DNA of 64,000 bases, taken from Eledone cirrhosa (taxonomy: Eukaryota). The first letter of the stretch is position 1, and each line of letters opens with the position of its first letter. Below the pieces are notes generated by a model. That model worked only from the letters and a program-made list of their open reading frames with translations, searched no databases and was not told where the DNA came from. Positions 4,542 through 55,699 of this stretch are shown in pieces. Position numbers and translations under genes: made by a program. The stretch covers positions 306,466,001 to 306,530,000 of the forward strand of contig OZ024742.1 of assembly GCA_964016885.1 (NCBI GenBank). Direction: 5' to 3'.

Positions 4542-4596
4542 ACTGCTATATATATTTCAGTGACAGCCACCTTTGGCTGTGACCTCTTCAGGCAGT
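4542..4596 (-). ncRNA. Type I minimal hammerhead ribozyme at a PLE-like terminus
   Basis: Minus strand reads ACTGC-CTGAAGA-GGTCACAGCC aaaggt GGCTGTCACT-GAAA-TATATA-TA-GCAGT-AATAAA: stem I, intact core, long stem II, palindromic stem III and a following poly(A) signal. Confidence 0.8.
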
Positions 4597-5474
4597 CCGA
4601 ATTAGTGTGGTATAGACAAGTACATATGTTGTTGAGGTGTATAATTGTGTCAATACTCTGATATGCCCAGTTCCTGGTTGGGTTGTTATTTCACTGAGGA
4701 ACTGGAATGATATGAATTCAAACAAATGAATTTCAGTGTCAAAGGGCCTCTTCTCCTCTCATTGGTCAGTTGTTAGACCATTCCTCATTCTAAGTGTTGT
4801 TATTGTTGGAGTTAGCTTAAGAAATTGATAAAGTGGTAGAAGGGACAAGGTGTTAAAGTAACAAAATAACAAAAAAAGTGTCAAACTTCCCATTGGTCAG
4901 TTCTGAGAGGATTCCTCAGTCAGAAGTCTATAGAATTCTTTCTGGGGTGAGGCTCCCTGTAGTGTTTGTGTTTGCTATTGTTAAGTACATTTGACCTCTA
5001 CCATTATTTTGGTAGTGTTGTTGGTGTTGTGGTCAGCTTATGTCTTGCTGCTGCTGACAATTTAGAAGTATCTGTGTGTGTTTTTTCTTCATCCCTCCTC
5101 CCACCATCTCTCATAGTGGTGGTGGGGGGGGGGGTTATTGAAGAAATATAAGGCAATAAATGAAGAAAACAGAAAATAAATAATATAATTTGTATAATTT
5201 GAAAATAAATAATAAATAGAGAATAAAGAATAAAGAATAAATGAAAAATTGGTGAAAAAGTAATGAAAATGAATATGGAGAAGTGAAAAATAAAATGAAG
5301 ATTCAAATAAAGTAGGATAAAGTGTGTGTGTGTGCTATAACCAATCTCAAGGTCAGAAATATGCTGAATAGATTGGTATGAGGAAAAAGATGGTAAAATA
5401 AGATAATCAAACAAAATGTGTTTGTGTTATAATCAATCTCAACTTAAAAATAAATATAAATATAGGGTGATACA

Positions 5475-8420
<2,946 letters not shown>

Positions 8421-8617: not shown

Positions 8618-8682
8618 TATATGAAATATAAGAATCAAAGAGCTGTTCAAAACATAATGTTTTGAACAGCTCTTTGATTCTT

Positions 8683-8695
<13 letters not shown>
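8618..8695. repeat. Perfect fold-back hairpin (~38-bp arms) ending a repeat related to 43140-43320
   Basis: TATATGAAATATAAGAATCAAAGAGCTGTTCAAAACAT-a-ATGTTTTGAACAGCTCTTTGATTCTTATATTTCATATA. Confidence 0.85.
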
Positions 8696-8737: not shown

Positions 8738-8774
<37 letters not shown>

Positions 8775-8903
8775 GAAAACGATAAGTTGAAAAAAATGAA
8801 AACGAAAAACGAAATTTCATTTCTCACTCTTAGTATGGCACTTACTTAAATGTAAGTATGTATGTATACGTACATACATATATGTATACAGACGTACAGT
8901 AGC

Positions 8904-8956
<53 letters not shown>

Positions 8957-9109
8957 CATGCAGGTACACATACATATATGCACGCATCAGTTTAGCAGAC
9001 GCTTATTATAGCGCTGCTTTGTTCGTTTGTCAACAAACTGAACAGCCTGAATTTATGCCATACGGTGTTAAGGCAACCACGTCACCTTTTTGTTCAACAC
9101 TGACACAGG

Positions 9110-9154
9110 AACGATGTACTAGTTTCAAGCTTGTTAGCTATCTTCAGCACCGTT
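9110..9154 (-). ncRNA. Type I hammerhead ribozyme (family B, CUGAAGA core)
   Basis: AACGGTG-CTGAAGA-tAGCT aaca AGCTt-GAAA-CTAG-TA-CATCGTT. Confidence 0.82.
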
Positions 9155-9578
9155 TACCCATCTGCCAGATAGTTGAACGTTCGAAAGTATATACTTTCCT
9201 TATGAAAATTAACGGCTGAGCAGCCTAATTTGCATATTGAGTGAGTTAAATCGGTCAGGCATACCGAAAACGATAAGTTGAAAAAAATGAAAACGAAAAA
9301 CGAAATTTCATTTCTCACTCTTAGTATGGCACTTACTTAAATGTAAGTATGTATGTATACGTACATACATATATGTATACAGACGTACAGTAGCATGTAT
9401 ATATATATATATATATATATACATACATGCAGGTACACATACATATATGCACGCATCAGTTTAGCAGACGCTTATTATAGCGCTGCTTTGTTCGTTTGTC
9501 AACAAACTGAACAGCCTGAATTTATGCCATACGGTGTTAAGGCAACCACGTCACCTTTTTGTTCAACACTGACACAGG

Positions 9579-9623
9579 AACGATGTACTAGTTTCAAGCT
9601 TGTTAGCTATCATCAGCACCGTT
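9579..9623 (-). ncRNA. Type I hammerhead ribozyme (family B)
   Basis: AACGGTG-CTGATGA-tAGCT aaca AGCTt-GAAA-CTAG-TA-CATCGTT. Confidence 0.85.
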
Positions 9624-9833
9624 TACCCATCTGCCTGATAGTTGAACGTTCGAAAGTATATACTTTCCTTATGAAAATGAAATTTCGTTTTTCGTTTTCA
9701 TTTTTTTCAACTTATCGTTTTCGGTATGCCTGACCGATTTAACTCACTCAATATGCAAATTAGGCTGCTCAGCCGTTAATTTTCATAAGGAAAGTATATA
9801 CTTTCGAACGTTCAACTATCTGGCAGATGGGTA

Positions 9834-9878
9834 AACGGTGCTGATGATAGCTAACAAGCTTGAAACTAGTACATCGTT
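9834..9878 (+). ncRNA. Type I hammerhead ribozyme (family B, inverted unit)
   Basis: Same motif on +. Stem I is extended by ATGGG/CCTGT, CTGGCA/TGTCAG and GTTCAAC/GTTGAAC. Confidence 0.85.
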
Positions 9879-10107
9879 CCTGTGTCAGTGTTGAACAAAA
9901 AGGTGACGTGGTTGCCTTAACACCGTATGGCATAAATTCAGGCTGTTCAGTTTGTTGACAAACGAACAATGCAGCGCTATAATAAGCGTCTGCTAAACTG
10001 ATGCGTGCATATATGTATGTGTACCTGCATGTATGTATATATATATATATTTATATACATGCTACTGTACGTCTGTATACATATATGTATGTACGTATAC
10101 ATACATA

Positions 10108-10159
<52 letters not shown>

Positions 10160-11946: not shown

Positions 11947-12562
11947 CACACACACACATATATATATATATAAATATACAACCCGTGTGCGAATCGAGAT
12001 GTTTGAAAAGGTAAAAGGAAATATATATATAAATGTAATCTGAGTTTTTCGAATATTAATAATAACATTCGATTCGTTTGCAATTTTGCAAACAAGCCTC
12101 AATTTTATAGCCATGTCAGTAGAATGAACACTTCATTCTTGTGCTTGTGTTGGCATGCGAACAGAACTGCAGACACTCACGTTTCTGACTGATCAGCCAG
12201 TCTGCTAATATGCAAATCCGGCCGATCAGTCATTGTGTATTTTTGGAAAATAACAAATATTTTCACTAGCTCTGACAGTTTGGCAGGAGAACAGTGATCG
12301 AATGTTATTATTAATATTCGAAAACCTCAGATTACATTTATTGTATTCAGCCGTGTAGAGCTAAATTTTCCTTTTTATTTGAATTTGGCAAAGCCGGCCA
12401 TTTATCGCTTGTATACAGGAAACTGACTGACCAGTCAGCTGATATGCAAATCTGGCTGATCAGTGTATCTGCTAATATGCAAATCAGGCCGATCAGTCAC
12501 TGGGTATTTTTGAAAATAGCATATATTTTCACTACCTCTGACAGTTTGGCAGGTAAACAGTG

Positions 12563-12610
12563 AGCTGTACTGATGAAGGGTGATACCCAGAAACATTAGT
12601 GTCTGCAGTT
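12563..12610 (+). ncRNA. Type I hammerhead ribozyme (family C)
   Basis: AGCTGTA-CTGATGA-aGGGT gat ACCCa-GAAA-CATTAGTG-TC-TGCAGTT, with GUC cleavage triplet. Stem I is extended by TTGGCA/TGCCAA. Confidence 0.82.
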
Positions 12611-12734
12611 CCGTTCGCATGCCAACACAAGAGCAAGAATGAAGTCTTCATTCTACTGATATGGCTATAAAATTGAGGCTTGTTTGCAAAATTGCAAACG
12701 AATCGAATGTTATTATTAATATTCGAAAATCCAG

Positions 12735-12836
12735 TCGAGTTTAACTTTGCCTTTCATCCTTACGGAATCGATTAAATAAAGTACCAGTAATACACTGGTA
12801 AATTGCTGGCCTTGTGCCAAAAGTAGAAACAATTAT
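12735..12836 (+). mobile_element. SINE 3' fragment
   Basis: TTTGCCTTTCATCCTT..GATTAAATAAAGTACCAGT..GGCCTTGTGCCAAAAGTAGAAACAATTATT. A second copy is at 55592-55682. Resembles the common octopus SINE tail (from memory, not searched). Confidence 0.7.
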
Positions 12837-13103
12837 TAATATTCGAAAAACTCAGACTACGTTTATTGTATTCAGCCATGTAGAGCGAAATTTTATTTTA
12901 TATATATCTATATCTTTTAACATGTTAAAATATCCCCCACACACTTACAGACACATTCCTACTGACCATCCCTCTACCACGAATTACTCTGCTACACACA
13001 CACACACATGTTTTAGTGGGCATTTGAACTGTCAACAGGCTGCGGTTCCCACACACATCCCTGCTGACCATTATCACAACAACGAACCTCTTTACTACTA
13101 CTA

Positions 13104-16539: not shown

Positions 16540-16860
16540 ATTATACATTTGGAGAGGGTCATAATGTTATAATATTGCCAGAAATAATAACAGAACACAC
16601 TCGCTGCTTGGTTTGACTTGGTTTTCGCTTCTGTATCTTTAATATCTCCATAGTTAATTTATCGGTCAATCAATGTTTATCATTGATTGACCAACGGTTA
16701 AAAATATAGATATAAATGTATATATAGCCTATCAAAGTTCGTTCGTCACACAGTGTGTTCTGTTATAATTTCTGGCAATATTATAACAATATGACCCTCC
16801 CCAAATATAACAATATTTGTTTCAACACACGATTTCATATAAAAAACCTTGCAAATCAAA
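16540..16860. mobile_element. MITE-like or fold-back repeat with ~60-bp inverted arms
   Basis: GAGGGTCATAATGTTATAATATTGCCAGAAATAATAACAGAACACACT (~16554-16601) and its reverse complement at ~16752-16800. Confidence 0.65.
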
Positions 16861-17175: not shown

Positions 17176-17413
17176 ATAAAAACAAATAACGAAACGAAAT
17201 TAAATTTCGTTTCGCTTCTAACTCACTTTTGTATGACTGACGCTTAAACAATTAAGTTAAAGTGTACATCTACATATGTATACGGAAGTATTAGTATGCA
17301 TATAAATACACACATGTATACATATGTACATGTACTCAGCTTTTCACTAGACACTTTACAGTGAGTGTCAGCTAGTCTGTATGTAACCACACAGGCGGAC
17401 TGGGTTTTAGAGT
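17176..17413 (-). repeat. Inverted partial monomer of the 469-bp repeat
   Basis: Reverse complement of the unit segment ACTCTAAAACCC...CGTTATTTGTTTTTAT; abuts a short (TA)n. Confidence 0.93.
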
Positions 17414-17442
17414 AAATATTATAGAGTAAATATTTTAAAGTA

Positions 17443-17487
17443 AATATTGCTGATGAGATGTAATAACATCGAAACTAGTCCAATATT
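17443..17487 (+). ncRNA. Type I hammerhead ribozyme (family A, first of 10 copies)
   Basis: AATATTG-CTGATGA-GATGT aata ACATC-GAAA-CTAG-TC^CAATATT: 7-bp stem I, canonical core, 5-bp stem II, palindromic CTAG stem III. Predicted cleavage after 17480. Confidence 0.95.
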
Positions 17488-17805
17488 CCTGTCTGGCCCT
17501 CTGGAGAATAGAGGAAATGTGTTTCCTTGAAAACTCGTATGACTCTAAAACCCGGTCCGCCTGTGTGGTTACATACAGACTAGCTGACACTCACTGTAAA
17601 GTGTCTAGTGAAAAGTTGAGTACATGTACATATGTATACATGTGTGTATTTATATGCATACTAATACTTCCGTATACATATGTAGATGTACACTTTAACT
17701 TAATTGTTTAAGCGTCAGTCATACAAAAGTGAGTTAGAAGCGAAACGAAATTTAATTTCGTTTCGTTATTTGTTTTTATCGTTTCCGCTGAACCGGTGCG
17801 TACAA

Positions 17806-17826
17806 TGACTCACGTTCTATGCAAAT
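17806..17826 (+). promoter_or_regulatory. AP-1-like TGACTCA and octamer ATGCAAAT in each family A monomer
   Basis: TGACTCA at 17806-17812 and ATGCAAAT at 17819-17826, repeating every 469 bp. The octamer is also kept in families B and C. Function is inferred only. Confidence 0.45.
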
Positions 17827-17880
17827 TAGTCTACCCACTACTAATTTTCATAGAAAAAGCATATGACGATATGTGCTTTT

Positions 17881-17978
17881 ACAATTCTCCAGAGAAGCCG
17901 GAAGATGGGTAAATATTGCTGATGAGATGTAATAACATCGAAACTAGTCCAATATTCCTGTCTGGCCCTCTGGAGAAT
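17881..17978 (+). ncRNA. Family A hammerhead with extended, bulged stem I (second copy)
   Basis: ATTCTCCAGAG pairs with CTCTGGAGAAT (11 bp) and AGATGGG with CCTGTCT. A TA(A) bulge precedes the AATATTG/CAATATT stem. Confidence 0.85.
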
Positions 17979-20900
17979 AGAGGAAATGTGTTTCCTTGAA
18001 AACTCGTATGACTCTAAAACCCGGTCCGCCTGTGTGGTTACATACAGACTAGCTGACACTCACTGTAAAGTGTCTAGTGAAAAGCTGAGTACATGTACAT
18101 ATGTATACATGTGTGTATTTATATGCATACTAATACTTCCGTATACATATGTAGATGTACACTTTAACTTAATTGTTTAAGCGTCAGTCATACAAAAGTG
18201 AGTTAGAAGCGAAACGAAATTTAATTTCGTTTCGTTATTTGTTTTTATCGTTTCCGCTGAACCGGTGCGTACAATGACTCACGTTCTATGCAAATTAGTC
18301 TACCCACTACTAATTTTCATAGAAAAAGCATATAACGATATGTGCTTTTACAATTCTCCAGAGAAGCCGGAAGATGGGTAAATATTGCTGATGAGATGTA
18401 ATAACATCGAAACTAGTCCAATATTCCTGTCTGGCCCTCTGGAGAATAGAGGAAATGTGTTTCCTTGAAAACTCGTATGACTCTAAAACCCGGTCCGCCT
18501 GTGTGGTTACATACAGACTAGCTGACACTCACTGTAAAGTGTCTAGTGAAAAGCTGAGTACATGTACATATGTATACATGTGTGTATTTATATGCATACT
18601 AATACTTCCGTATACATATGTAGATGTACACTTTAACTTAATTGTTTAAGCGTCAGTCATACAAAAGTGAGTTAGAAGCGAAACGAAATTTAATTTCGTT
18701 TTGTTATTTGTTTTTATCGTTTCCGCTGAACCGGTGCGTACAATGACTCACGTTCTATGCAAATTAGTCTACCCACTACTAATTTTCATAGAAAAAGCAT
18801 ATAACGATATGTGCTTTTACAATTCTCCAGAGAAGCCGGAAGATGGGTAAATATTGCTGATGAGATGTAATAACATCGAAACTAGTCCAATATTCCTGTC
18901 TGGCCCTCTGGAGAATAGAGGAAATGTGTTTCCTTGAAAACTCGTATGACTCTAAAACCCGGTCTGCCTGTGTGGTTACATACAGACTAGCTGACACTCA
19001 CTGTAAAGTGTCTAGTGAAAAGCTGAGTACATGTACATATGTATACATGTGTGTATTTATATGCATACTAATACTTCCGTATACATATGTAGATGTACAC
19101 TTTAACTTAATTGTTTAAGCGTCAGTCATACAAAAGTGAGTTAGAAGCGAAACGAAATTTAATTTCGTTTCGTTATTTGTTTTTATCGTTTCCGCTGAAC
19201 CGGTGCGTACAATGACTCACGTTCTATGCAAATTAGTCTACCCACTACTAATTTTCATAGAAAAAGCATATAACGATATGTGCTTTTACAATTCTCCAGA
19301 GAAGCCGGAAGATGGGTAAATATTGCTGATGAGATGTAATAACATCGAAACTAGTCCAATATTCCTGTCTGGCCCTCTGGAGAATAGAGGAAATGTGTTT
19401 CCTTGAAAACTCGTATGACTCTAAAACCCGGTCCGCCTGTGTGGTTACATACAGACTAGCTGACACTCACTGTAAAGTGTCTAGTGAAAAACTGAGTACA
19501 TGTACATATGTATACATGTGTGTATTTATATGCATACTAATACTTCCGTATACATATGTAGATGTACACTTTAACTTAATTGTTTAAGCGTCAGTCATAC
19601 AAAAGTGAGTTAGAAGCGAAACGAAATTTAATTTCGTTTCGTTATTTGTTTTTATCGTTTCCGCTGAACCGGTGCGTACAATGACTCACGTTCTATGCAA
19701 ATTAGTCTACCCACTACTAATTTTCATAGAAAAAGCATATAACGATATGTGCTTTTACAATTCTCCAGAGAAGCCGGAAGATGGGTAAATATTGCTGATG
19801 AGATGTAATAACATCGAAACTAGTCCAATATTCCTGTCTGGCCCTCTGGAGAATAGAGGAAATGTGTTTCCTTGAAAACTCGTATGACTCTAAAACCCGG
19901 TCCGCCTGTGTGGTTACATACAGACTAGCTGACACTCACTGTAAAGTGTCTAGTGAAAAGCTGAGTACATGTACATATGTATACATGTGTGTATTTATAT
20001 GCATACTAATACTTCCGTATACATATGTAGATGTACACTTTAACTTAATTGTTTAAGCGTCAGTCATACAAAAGTGAGTTAGAAGCGAAACGAAATTTAA
20101 TTTCGTTTCGTTATTTGTTTTTATCGTTTCCGCTGAACCGGTGCGTACAATGACTCACGTTCTATGCAAATTAGTCTACCCACTACTAATTTTCATAGAA
20201 AAAGCATATAACGATATGTGCTTTTACAATTCTCCAGAGAAGCCGGAAGATGGGTAAATATTGCTGATGAGATGTAATAACATCGAAACTAGTCCAATAT
20301 TCCTGTCTGGCCCTCTGGAGAATAGAGGAAATGTGTTTCCTTGAAAACTCGTATGACTCTAAAACCCGGTCCGCCTGTGTGGTTACATACAGACTAGCTG
20401 ACACTCACTGTAAAGTGTCTAGTGAAAAGCTGAGTACATGTACATATGTATACATGTGTGTATTTATATGCATACTAATACTTCCGTATACATATGTAGA
20501 TGTACACTTTAACTTAATTGTTTAAGCGTCAGTCATACAAAAGTGAGTTAGAAGCGAAACGAAATTTAATTTCGTTTCGTTATTTGTTTTTATCGTTTCC
20601 GCTGAACCGGTGCGTACAATGACTCACGTTCTATGCAAATTAGTCTACCCACTACTAATTTTCATAGAAAAAGCATATAACGATATGTGCTTTTACAATT
20701 CTCCAGAGAAGCCGGAAGATGGGTAAATATTGCTGATGAGATGTAATAACATCGAAACTAGTCCAATATTCCTGTCTGGCCCTCTGGAGAATAGAGGAAA
20801 TGTGTTTCCTTGAAAACTCGTATGACTCTAAAACCCGGTCCGCCTGTGTGGTTACATACAGACTAGCTGACACTCACTGTAAAGTGTCTAGTGAAAAGCT

Positions 20901-21920
20901 GAGTACATGTACATATGTATACATGTGTGTATTTATATGCATACTAATACTTCCGTATACATATGTAGATGTACACTTTAACTTAATTGTTTAAGCGTCA
21001 GTCATACAAAAGTGAGTTAGAAGCGAAACGAAATTTAATTTCGTTTCGTTATTTGTTTTTATCGTTTCCGCTGAACCGGTGCGTACAATGACTCACGTTC
21101 TATGCAAATTAGTCTACCCACTACTAATTTTCATAGAAAAAGCATATAACGATATGTGCTTTTACAATTCTCCAGAGAAGCCGGAAGATGGGTAAATATT
21201 GCTGATGAGATGTAATAACATCGAAACTAGTCCAATATTCCTGTCTGGCCCTCTGGAGAATAGAGGAAATGTGTTTCCTTGAAAACTCGTATGACTCTAA
21301 AACCCGGTCCGCCTGTGTGGTTACATACAGACTAGCTGACACTCACTGTAAAGTGTCTAGTGAAAAGCTGAGTACATGTACATATGTATACATGTGTGTA
21401 TTTATATGCATACTAATACTTCCGTATACATATGTAGATGTACACTTTAACTTAATTGTTTAAGCGTCAGTCATACAAAAGTGAGTTAGAAGCGAAACGA
21501 AATTTAATTTCGTTTCGTTATTTGTTTTTATCGTTTCCGCTGAACCGGTGCGTACAATGACTCACGTTCTATGCAAATTAGTCTACCCACTACTAATTTT
21601 CATAGAAAAAGCATATAACGATATGTGCTTTTACAATTCTCCAGAGAAGCCGGAAGATGGGTAAATATTGCTGATGAGATGTAATAACATCGAAACTAGT
21701 CCAATATTCCTGTCTGGCCCTCTGGAGAATAGAGGAAATGTGTTTCCTTGAAAACTCGTATGACTCTAAAACCCGGTCCGCCTGTGTGGTTACATACAGA
21801 CTAGCTGACACTCACTGTAAAGTGTCTAGTGAAAAGCTGAGTACATGTACATATGTATACATGTGTGTATTTATATGCATACTAATACTTCCGTATACAT
21901 ATGTAGATGTACACTTTAAC

Positions 21921-21951
<31 letters not shown>

Positions 21952-25290: not shown

Positions 25291-28105
25291 CTAACAGTGC
25301 TGCGATCGAATGTGGCTTTTTAGCCCAGCCAATGATCTAAAATGTCTTGCACAGAGTCGGCAACCAAAACATTTACTGGGAATAGTCGGCTGTGGTTGGA
25401 GTTCGTGTACTTTTGCATGTCGCTTGAGTCCTCCTGCTGATTTACATTCTCTACCACATGTTTGGCAAGCATGATGAGTAGCATCTCCAACAGCAGCCTG
25501 GTAGTCAACCACTGGTCTTACTTTATGACTGCGAAGATGACTTTCGAGTCCAGCTTTGCTTAGGCAGAGTCTCGCACAGACGCTGCATGTCAGAAACATA
25601 GGAGGACCCTCGCCGTCTGGAAGTGCAACAGCAATACCCTTCCTCACGTCCCGCTTTACTTTCTCGTGTGCGATTCGAGATGCCTCAAAGGCAACTTTTC
25701 CCTCATATACAGTCTTTCTCCATTTATTACGATCAGCAGCAATATTTTCCCATGTATCAGCAGAGATGTTAGCGTCTTTCAGAGAGGCCTTCAAGGAATC
25801 CTTATACCTCTTTTTTGGTTTATGTGGCGGTCGTTTTCCTTTAACCAACTCTCCATAGAAGAGTTGTTTTGGTACTCTAGAATCCTTCATCCTGGCAAGG
25901 TGACCACTCCAACGGAGTCGCTGCTTAAGCACAAGAGCTTCTATACTGTCACACATAGAGCTTTCCAAAATCTCGACATCACTGATGTGGTCCCTCCAGC
26001 GAACGCCATGTATCCGTCTGAGACACATCTGATGGAAACGCTCCAATTGCTTAAGGTGGCGTCGATATGTGACCCAGGTCTCGCAGGCATAAAGAAGACA
26101 AGAGAGTACACATGCCCTGTACACCCTTACCTTTGTCCTCCTGCATATGTCTCGCCGACCCCAGAGTCGCCTTTCTAGCTTTCCGAAAGCATCACTTGCT
26201 TTCCTAATCCTAAGTGAGATCTCACTGTCAAGGTTGCCGTATCGATTGACAGTGCTTCCCAGGTAGACAAACTGATCAACCACTCCAAGTCGTTTGCCAT
26301 ACACATAGATGTTTGGTTCAGTGTACTGCCCACCAGGTGCAGGTTGGTACATGACGACGGTTTTCTTGAGACTGACAGTCAAACCCAGGGCAGTGCAAGC
26401 GTCAGAAAATACATTCAAAATGTGCTGCATATCACTCTCTGTGTGCGCTACAAGATCGCAATCATCTGCATACAAGAGGTCTCTTATGACTGATGTAAAT
26501 ACTTTTGTCTTCGCAGCAAAGCGCCTGATGTTAAATATGCTGCCTGAGGTTCGATATCGGATGTAAACACCATGCTCGCAATTCCTGAATGCAATACAGA
26601 AAACCATTGCAAAGTATATGGCAAACAGGGTCGGTGCTGGAATATCCCCCTGTTTCACTCCATTTTTTACTGAGATAGGCTCCGACATGTTACCTCCGAC
26701 ATTAACCCAAGCCTTCATGTCGTCATGGAAAGACCTAACTAAAGCAAGGAACTTATCAGGGCAACCAAGTTTCTGGAGAACCTTCCATAATGCATCTCTG
26801 TTGACAGTATCGAAAGCCTTTGTCAGATCGACAAAAACCTGATACAGATCCAAGCCCTGTTCAATGCACTTCTCCTGGAGCTGTCTAGCTGAGAAGATCA
26901 TATCAGTAGTGCCGCGTCCAACACGAAAACCAGATTGACTTTCAGGAAGGACACAATCTGCAATGTGTGTCAGCAGACGGTCCAGAAGCACCCTACATAA
27001 AACTTTCCCCACGACAGAAAGCAATGATATACCTCTGTAGTTCCCACAATCATTCCTGTTACCCTTTCCCTTGTACAAGACCACCATTACTGCATCTCTC
27101 CAGTCCTCAGGCACGGATTCATTAGCCCATATCCTTCCAAACAGAGAGTGAAGATGTTGCAGGAGTCTCTCACCACCATATTGTAGGAGCTCAGCATGTA
27201 TGCCATCCATACCTGGAGATCTTCCACTGTTCAGCTTCGAAATAGCCACTGCAACCTCCACAAGTGTCGGAGGTTCTGCGAGAGCTACTTTCACAGGACT
27301 TTCCGGAATGAGATTGAGGAAATCTTCACTGACGACAGACGGCTGATTCAAAAGATCATCAAAGTGCTCTCGCCACCTTCGTAGAATTCCCTGTGAGTCA
27401 CGAAGAAGTTCTTTGCCATCCTTGCTGCGAATCGGTGTCACCAGAGAAGAACACGGTCCATAAACCTCACGCAAGAGACTGTACAACAGCTTTGTGTTAT
27501 TGCAATCAGACGCAGTTTGTATCTCACCAGCCTTCTCACTCCACCACTGATCCTTCATCTGAGAAAGACTCCGCCTAACACGTGATTTTACATCCCTGAG
27601 CTCCTCATGCAACGTATTCCTCTCCTGTGGTCTTGCCGTCAAGTAGCGTGACAGAGCGCGCCTCTTATCAGCCAACAAGTCATCTATATGCACATCCTTC
27701 TCATCAAACCAGTCCTGATGTTTTCTCTGCACCAATCCCAGAACACGTCTGCCTACATCATAAACCGACTTTTTAAGAGTCGGCCAATCCTCACCAAGAT
27801 CTGCAGCCTGCATCTCTTCTTCCAATGTCCTCTTCACATTTTTATCCTTAAGACGAGCAGCATTCAATCTTTTGGGCAGGGCAACACCAGGAGCCCGGAT
27901 TTTACGTTTGGTGATTAGATTCACTTTTGCGCGTACCAGGCGGTGGTCCGTCCAGCACTCAGCTCCACGAAGAACACGAACACACTGCACATCCTGTCTG
28001 TCACGCATCCTGACTAGGACGTAGTCCAAAAGATGCCATTCCTTAGATGCAGGATGCATCCATGTGGTCTTGAATTTGTTCTTTTGTTGGAACATGGTGT
28101 TGGTA
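25291..28105 (-). mobile_element. 5'-truncated RTE-type LINE; open ORF with endonuclease C-terminus, RT and three C2H2 zinc fingers
   Basis: TTWMHP..WHLLDY...TDHRLV (APE end); GRSPGMDGI, NYRGISLL, QSGFR, FVDLTKAFD, GVKQG, LLYADD; LRWSGH; three CxxC-x12-HxxxH motifs. The stop is followed by a (TG)n tract. The N-terminal residues of the called ORF come from the flanking microsatellite. Confidence 0.95.
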
Positions 28106-28169
28106 ACATATATATATACATACACAGGCGCATGGGCGTGGAACTAGGTGTATGTTAAGCAATATATAC

Positions 28170-30059: not shown

Positions 30060-30227
30060 TAGAAGTGGTTACACAACAGTTAATTCACCATACCGAGAAC
30101 AATTGTTTCACCTTAGCGGATCCTCAGGTCGTACGGAATAGGTTCTTGAACAGTACGAGGTGAGGTTCCGCTAAGGTGAAACAATTGTTCTCGGTATGGT
30201 GAACTAACTGTTGTGTTACCACTTCTA
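30060..30227. repeat. Fold-back element with a decayed hammerhead motif in each arm
   Basis: Arms of ~65 bp are reverse complements. The minus strand reads CTGAGGA-tCC gctaa GGt-GAAA-CAATTG-TT-CTCG. Confidence 0.65.
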
Positions 30228-32776: not shown

Positions 32777-33247
32777 TAGATACGCTTATATATATGCAAA
32801 TATCTACGTAAACTTAAATATTTACGGTGATGCTATGAACATGAACTGAGGAAAGAATCGAAATGCTATAATGTTCGAAAGTAAACAGAAAACAAAGAAA
32901 TATGTAGGGGATGGCTGGTGGGGAATCAGTGATGTATGGAGGGTGGGAGCTAATATTAAAAAGGAAAGAAAAAAAGACATGTGAATACTAGAAATATAAA
33001 CATCAGCCTAGAAACGAGAGAGACAAATTAATGTATAAACCTGACAAAAGTATTTTCCCGGAGACATCAATACCGGGTGAGCTTTTATGGGAAAATTTTA
33101 CTGTAGCAATTCTGCCAGGCTGAATTACTGAATAAGAACTTTAAGGTTCCATCTTGCATCATTGTTGTATTCATGCGTCCCCATTATCTCTCTTTCTTTC
33201 TCTCACTCTCTCACTCTCTCTCCCCTCTCTCTCTCTCTCGTTCTCTC

Positions 33248-33308: not shown

Positions 33309-33406
<98 letters not shown>

Positions 33407-33420
33407 TTTTAATATAGATG

Positions 33421-33471
33421 AGATTCTACAGGACTAGAACTGTTTCATTCATTAGAAATCATCAGGAATCT
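33421..33471 (-). ncRNA. Type I hammerhead ribozyme
   Basis: AGATTC-CTGATGA-tTTC taat GAAt-GAAA-CAG ttctagtc CTG-TA-GAATCT. Confidence 0.75.
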
Positions 33472-34305
33472 GGGTATCAAAAAATAAAAATGGTATTTAT
33501 AGGTCTCTACAAGTGGTAGGAGAGGGTGGGGAGTGGGATGGGTGCAGGTCATTGGTTGATAGAAAAGGGAATTCATTAAAAGCTAATTCTACAAAGCTAT
33601 AGTTTATTTTTATTTATTTATGTTTTTAGAGTAACAAGGGCAGACAGAATTCTATAAACAGGTTCCGGATGGCATACCATTCCTTGTCATTAAGTTTCTC
33701 TTAAGCTAACAGATGTCTATAAAATCAGTGGGGGGTCAGTCATGGTCGATAGAATTAAAGAAAAGGGAGATTCTTTAAAAGCTAAAATCATTAAGGTTCT
33801 ACTAAGTGACAAAGGTCTAGAGAATTCTGCAGACAGATTCAAAATACTGAGTGCCTATCTTACTATTATCTTCGAACTTCTCTTAAACTAATCAACTATA
33901 TGCCAAAAATCAACAGACACATCACAAAAAAACAAAAAAACATGCTCACTCACACACTTACGCGCAACCATAAACACACACACAAACACATATACACACA
34001 TAAAAACACACACACATATATAAAAATATATTCATATACATACATATACATACACACATACATACATACATACATATATATATATAAATATATATATATA
34101 CATATATCTATAAGTATATATACATATATACACACACATATATATATACACATACACACACACATACACATACATACACACACACACACATATATACACA
34201 TATAAATACACTCACACACATACATACAAACACAAATATACATGTGTATACATATACACACAAATACATATAGACATATATACATACATATACACAGACA
34301 CATAT

Positions 34306-34341
<36 letters not shown>

Positions 34342-34401
34342 ACACACATACATACATACACATATATATACACACACATATATATACACACACATACATA
34401 T

Positions 34402-34454
<53 letters not shown>

Positions 34455-34686
34455 TACATACACACACATATACATATATATATTAAAAAAAACCATACAC
34501 ACACATATATACATATACACACACATACACACAAACACACACACACATATATATACACATATACATATATATATACATTCATATATATAACCATATACAT
34601 ATATACATATATACACATACATATATATATATATATATACACATAAACAAATATATACACATACAAACACACACACACACATACAT

Positions 34687-34739
<53 letters not shown>

Positions 34740-34780
34740 CACACATATACACATATATAAGGAAAAAGCACCATACATAC

Positions 34781-34899
<119 letters not shown>

Positions 34900-34964
34900 T
34901 ACACATATACACACATATATACACACACCCATACATATACATATATATACACATATATATACAC

Positions 34965-35025
<61 letters not shown>

Positions 35026-35074
35026 AATATATACATATATATAAAAATATACACACATATACATACACACACAC

Positions 35075-35150
<76 letters not shown>

Positions 35151-35377
35151 AAACACACATACAAACATACATATACACATACAAATATATAAACATATAT
35201 ATACACATATATACACGTATGTATATACATATATATATATACATATACATATATATATATACACATATATATATACATATATATATACATATATACACAC
35301 ACATATACATATTATATATACACATATACACACACATACACACACACATATATACACATTTTTATTTTTTGATACCC

Positions 35378-35428
35378 AGATTCCTGATGATTTCTAATGA
35401 ATGAAACAGTTCTAGTCCTGTAGAATCT
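35378..35428 (+). ncRNA. Type I hammerhead ribozyme (inverted twin of 33421-33471)
   Basis: Identical motif on +, with a 6-bp stem I and a closed CAG/CTG stem III. Confidence 0.75.
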
Positions 35429-35510
35429 CATCTATATTAAAACTTTTATACTCTGCTATGTATTGAGTACCTTACTTACTGTGGTTACCTCCGATTCAAC
35501 CCGGAATAAC

Positions 35511-35551
<41 letters not shown>

Positions 35552-36229: not shown

Positions 36230-38165
36230 TTATACTTCTCTTAGGTCAGTGTTGTTTGTTTGGGTGTTGTTGTTGTTCCACTCATTCTTTCTGTTTAGCT
36301 TTGGTCTTCTAATTTCTATTTCACTGGCCTCTCTGATTTGCCTATCTGCTGGGTCATTCCTATGTTTAGATATTATTCTAATTTCTATGTTGTCTATGTT
36401 ACCGTCATGTTGTTGTCTAGCATGTTCGTATAGTACTGACTCGTTTTTTCGTCCTTTTAGTTCCCCCCAGTGTTGGTCTATCCTTTCACCTATGCTACGA
36501 GCTGTCTCACCTATGTATGTTGTTGTCATGTTTCTGCAAGTACCCTCTGTACATCTTATGCTATAGACTACGTTTCTAGTTTTACAGTTTATCCGGGGGT
36601 TCACCTTACATATGATACACTTCCTATTGGTACAGTGGGTTTTCTTAAAAGGCTAGGTTTTGCTGATCAGGAATTTTATGGTGGTTCCTGGCTTTTCTAC
36701 CACCTTTATTTTTAAGTGGGTCTTTCTCAGGGCCTTTCTACACTGGTTAGCTAATTTCCCTCCAGGGGTGGCGTCCACAAACATGACACTCTGATATCTC
36801 TGGTTGTCGTACCATGATGTGGCCTTCCCTATCTTATGTCTAGCCCTATCTAAGCTATTCCATGATTTGCTCCTCCTGTATAGTGGGCAGATTCCTTTCA
36901 TGTCCAGTTCTATGAGGGTCTTATACTTTTCCATGGCTCCTTCGTATACTCTGACTCTGTCTCTTTGGTTGTAGCCAGAGAACTGCATGCGGTTGATGAA
37001 GTGTTGGATGTGTCCTTCCATTTCTGTTGGGTCGCACATGCTGGACACATTCTTCATCATTCGTACCAAATCTGCGATCAGAATATTAAACTTAGCACTA
37101 CTGGACATTGCTGAGTTTTTTAGTATCAGGTATTTGGAGGCCATGGGTTTAGCATAGTGTGAGTGGAGAATTTGGGCTCTTTCATCTGTAGTGTTAATCC
37201 AGAGTTCTGTGTGTAATACAGGTAGCCTATTGTTAGGGTGTTTGGAAGGGAAGTCTATAGTTACAGTTATACTCTGGTGTATGGAATTAGCTATCTGCTG
37301 GATGCTTTCCATCGTGCTACGTTCTAAATCAAACTTGTTAGTGCTCTCTAGTGGGGGTGTTCTTATAACTATATTGATATCATCTACATAACGAGAGTAC
37401 ATGATGAGGTCTATGGAGCTTTCATTAAGGAGATCTTTAAGTCTCCTTTCCCACCATACCATGAAAAGGTTGGCAACATCACCAGCTATGCTGACGCCGA
37501 TGGCTGCTCCCTCATTTTGGGTGTAGATTTTCTCATTGAACTTAAATATGTGGCCCTTTAGGGTAGTTTTGATACTAGCCCCTATTGCATGTGCGACCAT
37601 TTTTCTTACCTGATCAGTGTTTTGGGGGGTCCGTATGGCTTTGGTCCACCCAATCCACCTTCCTATGGGAGTCTTTTTAGCCATTGAGGTTATGGTGGGG
37701 GGTCTACCTCTTATAGGTCTACTAGGGCAGAAACATCTAAGGTCATGGCTGTCTAGGTAGTCAGTGTCGTAGGTAAGTCTAAGTAGGAGGCCCAGTTCGT
37801 CTGTGTCGACGTCGCAGAACTCCACCTCACTCTCAATGATCATCTCCACACATCTTTTCACAGCAAAATCAATGTTAATGGATGGGTACAGTGACACTAC
37901 ATCCATGCTGCCTATTATGCAGTTGGATAGGCTCCTGTTTTTGTTGCACTCACTGATTCTGCTGAGGAGGTCCACTGTACGTTCACATACATCTGGGGAC
38001 ATCTTGATTATGGGGCGTATAACCACTGAGAGGAAGTAGGAGATCCTGTAGTTTCTAGCTATATTAGCTCCGCATACGTGTCTTGTTGGTGGTCCTGTTG
38101 TCGGGTCGTCGACTGTCTTGTGGTCTTTGCGGAGCCCATACAAGGGTGGTATGCCATTGTTAGAT
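36230..38165 (-). mobile_element. 5'-truncated Penelope-like retroelement (RT + GIY-YIG), one frameshift
   Basis: YGLRKDHK, SMDVVSLYPSI, QNEGAAIG, YSRYVDD, HYAKPMAS; then NVVYSIRC...YIGETARSIGERIDQH...R.IRE...LNRKNE. Confidence 0.93.
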
Positions 38166-38675
38166 GCCTATATATATATAGTTTCATTGACAAGTATATT
38201 AATGTGCACAGTCACGTAGATATATTGCCCTTCGTATGACAGTGTGATTTTAGCTCAATGTAGGATAACTAGTATACTACAGAGCCGTTATTTTTTGTTG
38301 TTGTTTGATCATGCTGAGTAACCCCGTCACTCATTTCTTGCTATCCTCTCTCAACCTTCTTATGATCTATTGGTCCATTTATGTGATAAACTGTTGATGT
38401 AAATTTTTATGACATTATATGCGTCATGCATTGTGTGTTTTTCTATATAGCGTTGGCGTTGGGGCCCCCCTACTTGTCCTTTATCCTTGTTCTGGTGGAT
38501 GAGATCGATGGAGCCTGCAACCTTTGATACATTTTTGTTTATAAGCTCTGATGGATCCTGCCAAAGGGTATGTATGAAACACTGTTAGCAAATAAAACAA
38601 TGTATTTCTAAGCACTCTTTGGTTATTCCTAAACTTATATATATATATATATATAACTATACATATATATATATG

Positions 38676-38706
<31 letters not shown>

Positions 38707-38753
38707 TAGTGAAAAAGAGCAAAGGAACTATTATGACATTATAACAAGTTTAT

Positions 38754-38800
38754 TGCCGACAGCCGTTTCGTCCGACCATATGTGGGACTTTTCAAGGCAT
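38754..38800 (-). ncRNA. Variant minimal hammerhead motif (UUGAAAA core) in the left terminal repeat
   Basis: TGCC-TTGAAAA-GTCC...GGAC-GAAA-CGGCTG-TC-GGCA-ATAAA; the core deviates from CUGANGA. Confidence 0.55.
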
Positions 38801-41150
38801 ATAACATGTGATTGTAAGATCATTATTTACATCAACGTATCACTCAAGACTAGCAGTTTGAAATCGTGGTATACATCAGCAGCTCCGCTTGTATAGTTGG
38901 GGTCTATATTCTAAGGGGGCTCTTTTATATTAGTTGTCGGGGTCAGGGATTGAAGGTTAAAAATTAGATAATATCTAATTTACGCATTAAAAGTAAAGAT
39001 TAAATTAGAAGACTTGGGATCCCGTAGAAGCACCTTAAAAAATCCCTCAATAAGTGCATAAGGCTTACAGGCTCCAATAAACCTAATAAACTAGGAGAAA
39101 TTAAGAGGCTAATAAAATAAAAAAATAAAAAATAAAAATATAGAGTTTCACATTTGAGGATGAAGTGTGGGAGCTGCTCGTTGAGCTCCTTGAGCAAGTA
39201 CAATCCGACGAGGTCTGTCACCTGCGCTGAGTCGCTAGACCCCATAGTGATGTCGAAGTTGTTACGAGTGTTCTTGCGCGTCCACAATTCATCCTCAAAT
39301 GTGATAATTGTTTTACGAGCGGCAAGGACTATGTCAATCTGGGATCTAGTGAGTCCGCCTGTCCGCATTGCCATCATGAGCGCCTTATTTAGTAGTATGG
39401 GGGATATAGACGTATAGTAGGAGTCTATATCGAACTGGATGAAGCGTAGTGATTTGTGGTTGATAATGCTTGAGAACCACTTTATCACTTCAGCAGTGTT
39501 TCCCCATAGGTCCAGGCTAATCCTGTCTTTAACTTTCGGTATGACTTCATCTAGTATTTTTTTACTTATAATCCCTATGTCAGATTTAGAGGGGCTAATG
39601 AGCCTGACAGAGGGGCGCATACATAACTTAAAACAAACAAAAACCCCCTACACACTAAGCTGGAGATGCCTTACTAAAGCTCCTCCATATAGCTCGTTGA
39701 GCAGGTTTTGTAGCCTGTGCCTATCTGAATCTCATGCCATAGTATTCTCAGGGCTCAACTTGCTCAATAGGAGATCAGAAATCTTCTCGTCCTTCCCCCA
39801 TACTATACTTAGCTTTCTTTTTCTTCAGACCAGACACATAGCCCTGACACCACCCTGTCCCGCACTTGGCAGCCCAGTTGGCGAACAGGGTACTCTTTAG
39901 TAACCCCGGCCGCATAGATGCCTCGGCTCCCCGATTGCAGATGGGGACTCTGGTGAGGAACAGACGACCCTGTGTCCCACTTGGCAACTTGGGATTGGTG
40001 GCAGCATTGTTGCTGGGAACCCTGGGGGCAGCTGATGCCTGCGTGTAGGACATTGTGAGTGCCTGGACCCACGTTGACTAATCTGGGAAGGTGCCGTCGG
40101 AGATGTATGTCAACAAACTCGGGAAGATGCCCAGGGATACAGTAACAAAACACCCAATATGGTGGCCGCCCCCTGCCTATAACTAATCAACCCCCACCCT
40201 CCCCTAGTAAACCCCCGCCCAAATAGATGTCCCTCCCCATTCTCCCCCACTCACTTCTTTTGAGTTAGTTCTTCTTTATTATTAGTGATTAGTTCTTTAT
40301 TAATAGGGATTTTTTTGTATTTTACCACAGTTGACTTAATGGGCTTGGAGAGTTGACTCCCTTGATGTCTGACCACTCGATAAGTTAGGGGTTGTGCCCC
40401 TTGAACAGGGGTGTGTCTAGCTGGTCTACCTGCTGTCTGCTACTACCCGAGACTGGACACGGTCGTAGCCACAGGCCAGCGCGTGCGCGATAGCATAGAA
40501 TATATATTTTCTGCTAGTCACCCCGTGTAATATGATACCCCAAGATTCCATGCATGAGATTCACCGAAGCATGCGCAGTCTTAACCGGGAGATGACATGC
40601 GAACTTGAAAATACCACAAGAGAGACCCTTTGGATAGCGTAGACGCCGGACCATACCCGCAAATATATACCCTGATCTGTCTTGAATATACAGGGCTGAC
40701 GGAATATGGATAACACGACCACCATCTAAGCTGGAACCGACCCATACAGCAAACAAAGAGGGGACAGCCCTTCGCATTTGACCAGTCGCGTGTGGGCTTG
40801 GAGTTCGTAGTACACCACCCCAGTCAAATCCACACTGGTTTTTTTTACCAATATAGCATGTAGACCAATACATCCTATGTAGCGAGACCTTGGATTTAGA
40901 ACCGGCAGGCTGATCTATCGCAAACGCGTGCAACCCCCGACACTAAAAGATCGAACGGACCACACCCAGCAACCACTAGCTATTTGATCCACAGGTACAT
41001 TTCCCAGAGAGTCCACACAGCTGATAGTGAATCCCAGTTGATCCGTGGACTATGAACTTTTAAACAAGACCAACTGTGCCTGGAGCTATGCAGATGACTA
41101 CATACGCATAATGGATATCGCACCCACACGGTCACCAGTATTGTTCATCC

Positions 41151-41402
41151 TGCTGTATGTATGTAAATATCCGTGCGCGGGATATCCCTGAGTACATTTT
41201 CTTGACCATCAATTGTTAATTGATTGTTTGTTAATTAGGCAGGAATATAACATTAAGTATGTGTTAATCCTATGTGTTGCTGTATGTGTGTAAAGTATCC
41301 GAGCGCGGGATATCCCTGAGCAAATTTTGCCTGACTGTTAAGAGTGTATTGATTACTTGTTAATTAGGCAGGAATATATTATTATGTCTTTGTTAATCCT
41401 TA
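41151..41402. repeat. Diverged tandem duplication, ~126-bp unit x2, inside the PLE 3' region
   Basis: GCTGTATGT..TATCCG.GCGCGGGATATCCCTGAG...TTGTTAATTAGGCAGGAATATA..TGTTAATCCT occurs twice. Confidence 0.8.
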
Positions 41403-42324
41403 ATTTTTTGATAGTACATTATTAGATTACTGAAGCTACCTTATACCTTCTTAAAAATACATTTTATAATTATTGTCTTTTTGCTTATGTATTTTCTTAT
41501 TTACCACTTTCTTTAATCTTGCCCAACTTGATAAACTCTTTGAATTGCTCCCTAATTAAATTACTTAAATTACTTAAATTATTGTATCTATTATGCCTAA
41601 GTTGTATCTGTTGAAGCAGCCCTTTGAAAATTCCTCGGATATCCCAAATAACGTAATTTTTAACTTTTAATTTATAATTTTCCTCAATTCGTTTATATAT
41701 ATCCTTAAAGGCTCTCTAAAATTTTAATTCTTCGAAGGGTCTCTCGGAGGAAGCTCCTATTAAAAATATTAAAGGGGCTTTTTCTGAGAGATTTATTGAA
41801 GGCTCTTTGAATTAACCTTTAATTGATTAGTTTCTTTCAACTTAGTAGGGAATATCAAAACCTCGTAAGTTTTCTGAAATTTGTTAACGTGATCTCGGGG
41901 GAAGAAAGTTTTTTTCTTTCGAAAAAAAAAATTTTCTCTCGAAGGAATTTCTTAGCAAACTTTATATTTTTAGTGAAACTCTATATTTTTATTTTTTATT
42001 TTTTTATTTTATTAGCCTCTTAATTTCTCCTAGTTTATTAGGTTTATTGGAGCCTGTAAGCCTTATGCACTTATTGAGGGATTTTTTAAGGTGCTTCTAC
42101 GGGATCCCAAGTCTTCTAATTTAATCTTTACTTTTAATGCGTAAATTAGATATTATCTAATTTTTAACCTTCAATCCCTGACCCCGACAACTAATATAAA
42201 AGAGCCCCCTTAGAATATTGACCCCAACTATACAAGCGGAGCTGCTGATGTATACCACGATTTCAAACTGCTAGTCTTGAGTGATACGTTGATGTAAATA
42301 ATGATCTTACAATCACATGTTATA

Positions 42325-42371
42325 TGCCTTGAAAAGTCCCACCATATGGTCGGACGAAACGGCTGTCGGCA
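42325..42371 (+). ncRNA. Variant minimal hammerhead motif (UUGAAAA core) in the right terminal repeat
   Basis: Same motif as 38754-38800, followed by AATAAA. Confidence 0.55.
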
Positions 42372-42524
42372 ATAAACTTGTTATAATGTCATAATAGTTC
42401 CTTTGTTCTTTTTCACTAATATTTCTGCTCTGCTTTCACGCATAGAACTTAACTAGCTACCGTCACATATTTGGTAGGTCAGACGTGATCATCGCGATTC
42501 ACATACGACCTACCATACATCTTG

Positions 42525-43120: not shown

Positions 43121-43323
43121 TGTATATGCATATATGTGATATTAAGGATACTATTTATAGTTATGTATATATTATACTATAAACATCTATAAACAGGTAA
43201 GGTCAGTAATTTATTACTACCTTATTACCAGTAAGATAAATAGCTCAATGTAAGAACATCATTTGTTATACAGAGCAGTAATATAGAATACACAAGAATC
43301 AAAGCTATGTTAGAACATTTAAT

Positions 43324-49043: not shown

Positions 49044-49178
<135 letters not shown>

Positions 49179-49224
49179 ATTAACAATATTATAACTAGAA
49201 AATATCTTTACAAAACCATATTTA

Positions 49225-49280
49225 TTTTATTATACGTATTTCAAGGGTACTAACATTTTAGTATGTTTCGTCAGATAAAA
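49225..49280 (-). ncRNA. Type I minimal hammerhead motif
   Basis: TTTTAT-CTGACGA-(TACTAA/TTAGTA stem II, poorly paired at its base)-GAAA-TACGTA-TA-ATAAAA. Confidence 0.55.
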
Positions 49281-49559
49281 TATGATATTAGGTGTTAAAA
49301 TAGTGTGATCTTAATGGTAAAAGCCCATTAATGATATTCCAGATAAAAATTGTAGAGTTCTTCTAAACTGTTGTAAAATTAACTTTGTTGAATAATAAAC
49401 AAACCATATAACTCCTTATTTATATATATCAAAAGTATGTATTGAGTTAGAAACTCAAAATAGTCTCATTACAGTAAATGAGCTCTAGGAAAAAGATTTT
49501 TCCGAGCCGTATATATAACTGAACAAAAAGGAAAAACGAACACAGACATATATATATAT

Positions 49560-49867
49560 ATATTAAAATACAAATATTAATAAAATAGATGTTCTTTTGA
49601 TCAATTAAATTGTATTATACATATTTCAAAGGTACAACAGTACGTCCTCATCAGACAAAATATAATGATACATGACATACCCTGAGATGTTAAATGGTTA
49701 AGATTTAATCTACCTTGATTAAATCTTAACTATTTAACATCTCAGGGTATGTCATGTATCATTATATTTTGTCTGATGAGGACGTACTGTTGTACCTTTG
49801 AAATATGTATAATACAATTTAATTGATCAAAAGAACATCTATTTTATTAATATTTGTATTTTAATAT
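49560..49867. repeat. Near-perfect 308-bp palindrome (~151-bp arms, 6-nt loop), each arm with a hammerhead-like motif
   Basis: Arms match with one visible mismatch around the loop TACCTT (49711-49716). CTGATGA-GGACGTAC tgtt GTACCTTT-GAAA-TATGTA-TA at ~49773-49811. Confidence 0.88.
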
Positions 49868-55490: not shown

Positions 55491-55699
55491 AAATACTATT
55501 TGTGAAAATGTTTAAATGGCTCAGAAATGCTGCCTTCTTTAAACGTTCTTGGTAAGGGGAGCTTAAAAGAAGACATTATATTATAGAAACGGTGCCTTTC
55601 ATCCTTACGGGGTCGATAAAATAAAGTACCAGTAATGCACTGGGTAAATACTGGCCTTGTGCCTAAAGTAGAAACAATTATATCATCTACTACCACCAC

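Follow-up and report, generated by a model that had tools for sequence, protein, structure and literature searches.

A young tandem and inverted hammerhead retroelement insertion in Eledone cirrhosa, consistent with mobilisation in trans by a PLE enzyme

Introduction

Metazoan non-LTR retrozymes are short non-coding tandem elements with a type I hammerhead ribozyme in each unit and a self-paired circle (PMC7229834; bioRxiv 10.64898/2026.07.22.740005). Retrozymes have been argued to derive from Penelope-like elements (PLEs), and the published link is based on common ribozymes, co-occurrence and pLTR phylogeny (10.64898/2026.07.22.740005). Dimer-type hammerheads associated with PLEs have a palindromic helix III in need of a partner, and hammerhead pairs on opposite strands, 100-700 bp apart, were already noted in 2014 (PMC4209133). 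The literature treats as open which enzyme moves animal retrozymes and how the tandem and inverted insertions of PLEs originate.

Insertions of EN+ PLEs (Penelope/Poseidon, Neptune, Naiad, Hydra) contain a partial tandem adjoining an inverted, 5'-truncated, head-to-head copy, and this arrangement is standard, as are a tail on one of the ends and insertion into (TA)n (PMC8557442). Unequal 3' ends, a hammerhead in the repeat and a stem-loop start site have also been reported for these elements (PMC8557442, PMC3846280, PMC11167929). Rotifer PLEs form two direct repeats and one inverted repeat, head-to-head and tailed, also in trans (PMC3846280). In vitro, an anole PLE protein cuts AT-rich DNA on both strands and extends each of them; it has two internal start sites in a stem-loop, prefers uncleaved RNA and does not need ribozyme cleavage, and its start site is reported to be non-homologous to the cut DNA (PMC11167929). 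In L1 twin-priming 5' inversions both DNA ends prime, and head-to-head cDNAs join over short microhomology (PMC2912911).

We analysed a 64,000-nt stretch of the Eledone cirrhosa assembly GCA_964016885.1 (contig OZ024742.1, positions 306,466,001 to 306,530,000; hereafter the window, in whose numbering all positions are given). It contains a hammerhead-bearing insertion, locus B, and related families, A and C. The layout of locus B is not new, since it is an already published PLE insertion pattern, and the locus is a further example of a known element type in a known layout. A literature search of limited coverage found no description joining retrozyme, Penelope and head-to-head and, among the papers listed for octopus with Penelope and hammerhead, none that describes such a family. 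Short young insertions of this kind supply junction-level evidence, point to two candidate sites where RT starts and bring out one conserved motif; the value of locus B is that homologous internal start sites and a conserved octamer make the PLE-retrozyme link testable at the nucleotide level.

Layout of the insertion

Locus B (8772-10111) consists of two minus-strand units followed by one plus-strand unit, with their heads meeting (Table 1). The original prediction of a tandem dimer plus an inverted monomer was correct as to layout but not as to full copy numbers: the minus arm holds 1.89 copies and the plus arm 0.93 copy of a unit of ~469 nt, measured from cut site to cut site, and a complete monomer from cut to cut is encoded only once (9585->9117, 469 nt). 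Exact extension of the arms against the unit set their 5' starts at 9678 (minus) and 9675 (plus), confirming the predicted strand switch over AAAT, and both outer ends enter (TA)n runs as had been claimed. An overlap of at least 4 nt arose in 2.8% of 100,000 random inverted joins of the B unit. The 3' end of u1 (position 325, start site 2) lies in a U-rich tract. Any target-site duplication would be masked by the flanking (TA)n.

Only four substitutions separate units u1, u2 and u3, none of them found in more than one copy, and an internal TA run varies in length, which indicates that the insertion is young. All four are A<->T changes, and divergence is 2-3 substitutions per pair of copies. 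Because each substitution is private, a circular and a multimeric template are indistinguishable. Short inverted repeats, possibly truncated PLE ends, lie beside TA runs at 8618-8694, 16544-16809 and 30060-30227; the first adjoins locus B on the left and sits in a repeat recurring at 43159-43318.

Table 1. Features of locus B, comparator families and RT genes in the window
Feature	Position	Strand	Description
Minus arm	9678->8772	-	907 nt; u2 9678-9263 and u1 9262-8772
Unit u1	8772..9262	-	491 nt; exceeds u2 by 22 nt in its internal TA run; ends (3') at monomer position 325
Unit u2	9263..9678	-	416 nt; 5'-truncated at monomer position 377
Plus arm, unit u3	9675..10111	+	437 nt; monomer position 273 round to 242 (start site 1)
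Head-to-head junction	9675..9678		4-nt microhomology AAAT
Left (TA)n target run	8741..8772		last 3 nt common to element 3' end
Right (TA)n target run	10110..10157		2 nt common to element 3' end
Small hairpin marking start site 1	9335..9348; second copy 8844-8857	-	plus arm stops in the 5' strand of the hairpin
Hammerhead 1	9110..9154	-	core CTGAAGA (CUGAAGA) 9147-9141; predicted cut after A 9117
Hammerhead 2	9579..9623	-	core CTGATGA (CUGAUGA) 9616-9610; predicted cut after A 9586
Hammerhead 3	9834..9878	+	core CTGATGA (CUGAUGA) 9841-9847; predicted cut after A 9871
Octamer hairpin of u1	9201..9236	-	conserved
Octamer hairpin of u3	9752..9787	+	conserved; ATGCAAAT at 9753
Family A comparator	17176..21925		238-nt inverted arm 17176-17413 (-) and 9.6-unit array 17440-21925 (+)
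Family C comparator	12029..12900		405-nt unit, about 50% identical, older; head-to-head, 4-nt overlap 12184-12187
Broken PLE-like RT and endonuclease pieces	5466-7450		Hydra-like CxCX5C linker
Inverted 450-bp repeats, 99% identical	38703-39151 and 41973-42422		flank PLE-like RT fragment (38703-42422)
PLE-like RT frame	36653-38167	-	504 aa; best match 69% identical, protein annotated Octopus vulgaris
Stop-free RT frame	25291-28143	-	950 aa; C2H2 zinc fingers

Judged by sequence criteria, unit B fits a non-LTR retrozyme. At least two consecutive units each carrying a type I hammerhead are present in u2 and u1, whose cut sites are 469 nt apart; GC content is 0.36 (criterion: below 50%); and the unit is without a meaningful ORF, the seven ATG ORFs of at least 50 aa that overlap the locus running through TA repeats or antisense. 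The RT plus GIY-YIG ORF that defines an autonomous PLE is absent, and the element is therefore non-autonomous. Like the metazoan retrozymes, it is predicted to pair strongly with itself as a circle (z -10.3 against 40 shuffles; -5.3 once a TA-rich arm is removed). At 469 nt, the unit is just over the 150-450 bp given in PMC7229834 and within the 51-972 bp of 10.64898/2026.07.22.740005. For its inverted arm and fixed internal 3' ends we found no discussion in the accessible portions of either source, and the word 'inverted' is absent from the main text of PMC7229834.

Hammerhead ribozymes

All three B cores conform to the type I hammerhead (CUGANGA...GAAA...UH, three helices, open end in helix I). 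Each has a helix I of 7 bp, a helix II of 4 bp over a U-U, the palindrome ACUAGU and a GUA triplet, which is found in natural hammerheads (PMC1636495). The U-U at the base of helix II recurs in the axolotl retrozyme HHR_Amex2, and a similar weak palindromic helix III in HHR_Amex1 (PMC7229834). The 7-bp and 4-bp helices are nearer to canonical retrozyme hammerheads than to minimal ones, and the palindromic helix III matches the PLE-associated dimer type; unlike the latter, family B hammerheads lack a G10.1-C11.1 pair (PMC4209133).

A strict descriptor (hairpin helix III of at least 4 bp) gave no matches in the window. When relaxed post hoc to permit a palindromic helix III, it gave 18 matches in the window, including all three B cores, and 1 in total across 30 shuffled windows. 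The outward-pointing ribozymes proposed originally, one with CUGAAGA and two with CUGAUGA, were thus recovered. The core change, at N7, would be kinetically harmless. This location of the difference was also as predicted, position 7 being given as N in the published descriptor 'cuganga' (PMC8557442); support for N7 neutrality was not found in the accessible text of PMC1636495.

Comparing families B and A, 5 of 13 helix pairs had changed on both sides, a compensatory pattern that 2 of 500 shuffles reached (two lineages, three rows). Rfam returned no match at its gathering threshold. At E<=10, Hammerhead_HH9 was placed on the correct strand at two of the three cores with 18.5 bits (gathering 52, E 0.21), among 111 matches, most of them spurious and due to TA hairpins. 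The miRNA matches at this level stem from TA hairpins and were dismissed.

Helix III in locus B is a 6-nt palindrome that does not make a stable monomeric helix, and on their sequence the ribozymes are a dimer-type hammerhead variant. Folded as isolated single strands, they gave no active fold and no gain over shuffles (z -0.3 to -1.7). For the left arm, the predicted double-hammerhead fold lay 11.0 kcal/mol above the MFE, compared with 7.6 per monomer constraint. A weak palindromic helix III points to cleavage as a double hammerhead (PMC4209133), and from this feature the same would be predicted for locus B. Since in vitro cleavage was seen in only 1 of 9 predicted hammerhead dimers (bioRxiv 10.64898/2026.07.22.740005), activity of the B hammerheads is not to be assumed. 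Their likely role precedes insertion: as a double hammerhead they would cut multimeric RNA down to monomers, which would then be circularised.

Related families and insertion ends

The family A unit has the same length as that of B (469 nt) at 63% identity. Its copies are near-identical, and all six substitutions among them are transitions, compared with four A<->T changes in B. Family C is linked to B by blastn (E 8e-6 over 119 nt); it has the layout of A and B in decayed form, with both 3' ends in short (TA)n. Family C also has two octamers, and helix III of its hammerhead is a hairpin; its first ribozyme was removed by an internal deletion of about 140 nt, and it carries an insert, about 100 nt long and found again at 55593-55681, that is flanked by a duplication.

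At loci A, B and C every outer end, six in all, borders (TA)n; such runs make up 5.4% of the window. End and TA run overlap by 3, 2, 3, 2 and 3 nt at the five ends measured of the six (null for at least 2 nt about 0.2 per end). A 4-nt overlap lies at the centre of both B and C (null about 0.025), and the centre of family A has a 2-nt overlap and a 26-nt insert that repeats neighbouring sequence.

The 3' ends lie at positions 242 and 325 in B and 224 and 299 in A, none of them at the ribozyme cut. In the alignment of the two units they fall at columns 250/248 and 344/356, that is 2 and 12 columns apart (rough chance 0.002), and the site-1 ends of both are 2 nt ahead of a common TTTAAG. In B, site 1 is part of a small hairpin; its counterpart in A is weakly predicted. 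The positions of the C ends relative to these hinge on an ambiguous alignment. The offset between 3' ends is 83 nt in B, 75 nt in A and about 37 nt in C; the published PLE tail is 30-40 nt. Measured from the short-arm start, the stop of the long arm lies 135, 130 and 110 nt downstream in the three families (range chance 0.008, post hoc, n=3).

The octamer ATGCAAAT is conserved in all three families, at 9753, 9228, 12210, 12444, 12477 and in each full A unit; elsewhere in the window it occurs only at 32794 and 59783. The sole 9-mer common to the A, B and C units is TATGCAAAT, 88-100 nt upstream of the core. The octamer hairpin has an identical C-U mismatch in A and B, and u2 is without the octamer strand. 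The octamer is a candidate promoter element or protein-binding site. The promoter of newt satellite 2 includes an octamer. This satellite is, like B, a hammerhead tandem repeat, and its promoter is internal and of the snRNA type (PMC2220036). Whereas B contains the conserved octamer, retrozymes reportedly seem to be without promoters or conserved motifs (review PMC7761336).

The window is rich in microsatellites and contains further hammerhead sequences. A family at 33404-35512 is head-to-head, with cores at 33465 (-) and 35384 (+), 1.3 kb of microsatellite between them and both arms ending in (TA)n. At 49170-49867, a hammerhead (49274, -) is accompanied by a 308-nt near-perfect palindrome (49560-49867) with degenerate hammerhead-like cores pointing outward. 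At 50749 (+), a U3-A8 hammerhead-like motif whose helix III is palindromic stands alone between short TA runs.

Local RT genes

Several RT genes lie in the window. The PLE label of the local RTs rests on the CxCX5C linker, which defines Hydra (PMC8557442), and on motifs, in part motifs that we presume to be diagnostic. Pfam gave no family for the RT pieces 5466-6143 and 39003-39647, and RVT_1 below cutoff for 36656-38167. GIY-YIG was found in one of four homologues scanned. The repeats that flank the fragment at 38703-42422 each carry a hammerhead of a U3-A8 core variant, and the left end enters (TA)n. A hammerhead-like motif lies at 4591, on the strand opposite to the broken pieces at 5466-7450. 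The stop-free frame at 25291-28143, which we take to be RTE-like, is possibly a young LINE.

Locus B differs from EN+ PLEs in having no RT/EN ORF and no parent pLTR that could be found in the window, where the five PLE regions gave nothing convincing (weak AT-rich matches). Unit B has no similarity to these regions beyond one 28-nt AT-rich match (E 0.05). The broken PLE-like genes at 5466-7450 and 38703-42422 represent candidate partner families of B.

Insertion mechanism

We attribute locus B to a single recent insertion event of a hammerhead retroelement that is non-autonomous (a non-LTR retrozyme), mobilised in trans by a PLE RT/GIY-YIG enzyme with both DNA ends priming, and give this a probability of roughly 0.6. 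From the unit structure, hammerhead folds, head-to-head layout, end positions and microhomologies we infer the following course. RNA of unit B would be present as a circle or uncleaved multimer, and the endonuclease would cut both strands within a (TA)n run. Each DNA 3' end would then base-pair to a UA/AU stretch of 2-3 nt on the RNA and from there prime reverse transcription internally, away from the ribozyme-cut end: the left DNA end at position 325, the right at position 242 in the small hairpin. The left cDNA would traverse two ribozyme cut sites and the right cDNA one, and the two cDNA ends would be joined over AAAT via end-joining repair. Provided that the arms are cDNA, their starts within the unit and their passage over cut sites mean that a circle or an uncleaved multimer served as template.

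This proposal agrees with the original one of PLE mobilisation in trans, an inference that is well supported: the layout, missing ORF and (TA)n target fit it, and broken PLE-like RT genes lie in the window. Similarity of unit B to those PLE loci was not found beyond the one weak match. The association of tandem and inverted insertions and microsatellite preference with PLEs, also proposed there, matches published accounts (PMC8557442, PMC3846280). The location of every outer end at (TA)n and of none at a ribozyme cut in the three loci argues for double priming, and the homologous internal 3' ends of A and B, far from the cut in the unit sequence, support PLE-type internal priming from both DNA ends, on a template left uncut at the ribozyme sites. 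The templated insert at the centre of family A is expected of end-joining. Against this reading of locus B stand the end offsets of A and B (75-83 nt), which exceed the 30-40-nt tail that C alone fits; the short microhomology at the B ends, unlike the anole start site (PMC11167929); and the lack of similarity between B and the five local PLE regions bar the 28-nt match. The comparison covers three loci in one window.

The same element and PLE enzyme could also have produced locus B with only one DNA end priming, the inverted arm arising by self-priming fold-back or from an antisense template. The cDNA end AAAT would then anneal to ATTT of its own strand, which does exist at 9310-9313, and the second end would come from an endonuclease cut at the conserved hairpin. 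In its favour, self-priming has been put forward for head-to-head PLE junctions (PMC3846280), the PLE tail has been attributed to endonuclease resolution (PMC8557442), and the window contains the palindrome at 49560-49867 with almost no spacer. We nonetheless regard this as unlikely, though it is the alternative to be taken most seriously: the fold-back loops would be 365 nt (B), 102 nt (A) and about 137 nt (C) with no common rule, the family A centre is a templated insert and not a clean fold-back, and both outer ends have the same (TA)n microhomology, as would be expected had both primed. A non-PLE LINE enzyme acting by L1-type twin priming would give the same geometry and microhomologies (PMC2912911), and presumably RTE-like and other LINE RT genes lie in the window, among them the 950-aa frame. 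Locus B has neither poly(A) nor a common LINE 3' tail, its primings would both be internal, and at each end an internal position of the unit gives way to (TA)n; 5' inversions are few among trans-mobilised elements (PMC2912911); and it is a PLE-like RT fragment (38703-42422) that lies between hammerhead-bearing inverted repeats in the same layout. LINE mobilisation is accordingly very improbable. The B arms also differ from twin-primed ones in covering overlapping unit sequence, so that a multimer, a circle or two RNAs would be needed.

Two further explanations lie outside retrotransposition. A plain tandem insertion might have been inverted and duplicated later at the DNA level, by break-induced fold-back or a replication template switch; the 4-nt junction microhomology and fragile (TA)n runs are compatible with such repair, and locus C has a later deletion and a nested insertion. 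This is very improbable: a second, independent switch would have had to strike the homologous hairpin in A as well as in B and, for each of the three families, to land in (TA)n. Divergence is also about even among the copies, at 2-3 substitutions per pair. Least probable of all is an assembly or read fold-back artefact. Inverted tandem PLE structures do cause assembly trouble (PMC8557442), and an all-A<->T spectrum is odd, but the arms are unequal, with a unique spacer between them, private substitutions, different TA-run lengths and different flanks, and their ends coincide with sites conserved in another family. RNA-guided targeting, sought as complementarity between the right flank and the arm 3' end, was rejected for B, where 58 of 145 control flanks scored equally high; in A the same test was marginal (5 of 145).

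Within PLE-driven double priming, a more specific scheme is tentative and in our view rather doubtful: two PLE enzymes would have primed on one uncleaved multimeric RNA, not a circle, with the octamer segment recruiting PLE protein or acting as promoter. The narrow span of 110-135 nt between short-arm start and long-arm stop would fit a first RT halting at the footprint of the second bound protein. This footprint would cover the octamer segment, the one motif common to the three families, and that segment would be a cis-signal for PLE recruitment or an internal snRNA-type promoter. If true, animal retrozymes would resemble SINEs in possessing a promoter of their own and fixed sites at which RT begins, and insertion would not require the ribozyme.

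Read-through transcription

The original prediction that read-through RNA would form a long dsRNA hairpin holds for the geometry, with arms of 282 nt that are 99% complementary around a 94-nt loop; the predicted RNA has 329 cross-arm pairs. Two points had not been part of that prediction: sequestration of the ribozymes by the hairpin, and the recurrence of the layout in the related families A and C nearby. In plus-strand read-through, the single ribozyme fold is predicted to cost 78 kcal/mol, compared with 7.6 alone. In minus-strand read-through one ribozyme would remain free, and the double hammerhead is predicted to cost 215 compared with 11 kcal/mol. Given these fold costs, the three ribozymes would not act together. 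The hairpin would, in these models, sequester the ribozymes and block double-hammerhead cleavage, and transcription entering copy B from one or the other flank would probably lead to its silencing by its own hairpin. RNA is heavily edited in coleoid cephalopods, and each head-to-head insertion of this type is a potential 300-bp dsRNA.
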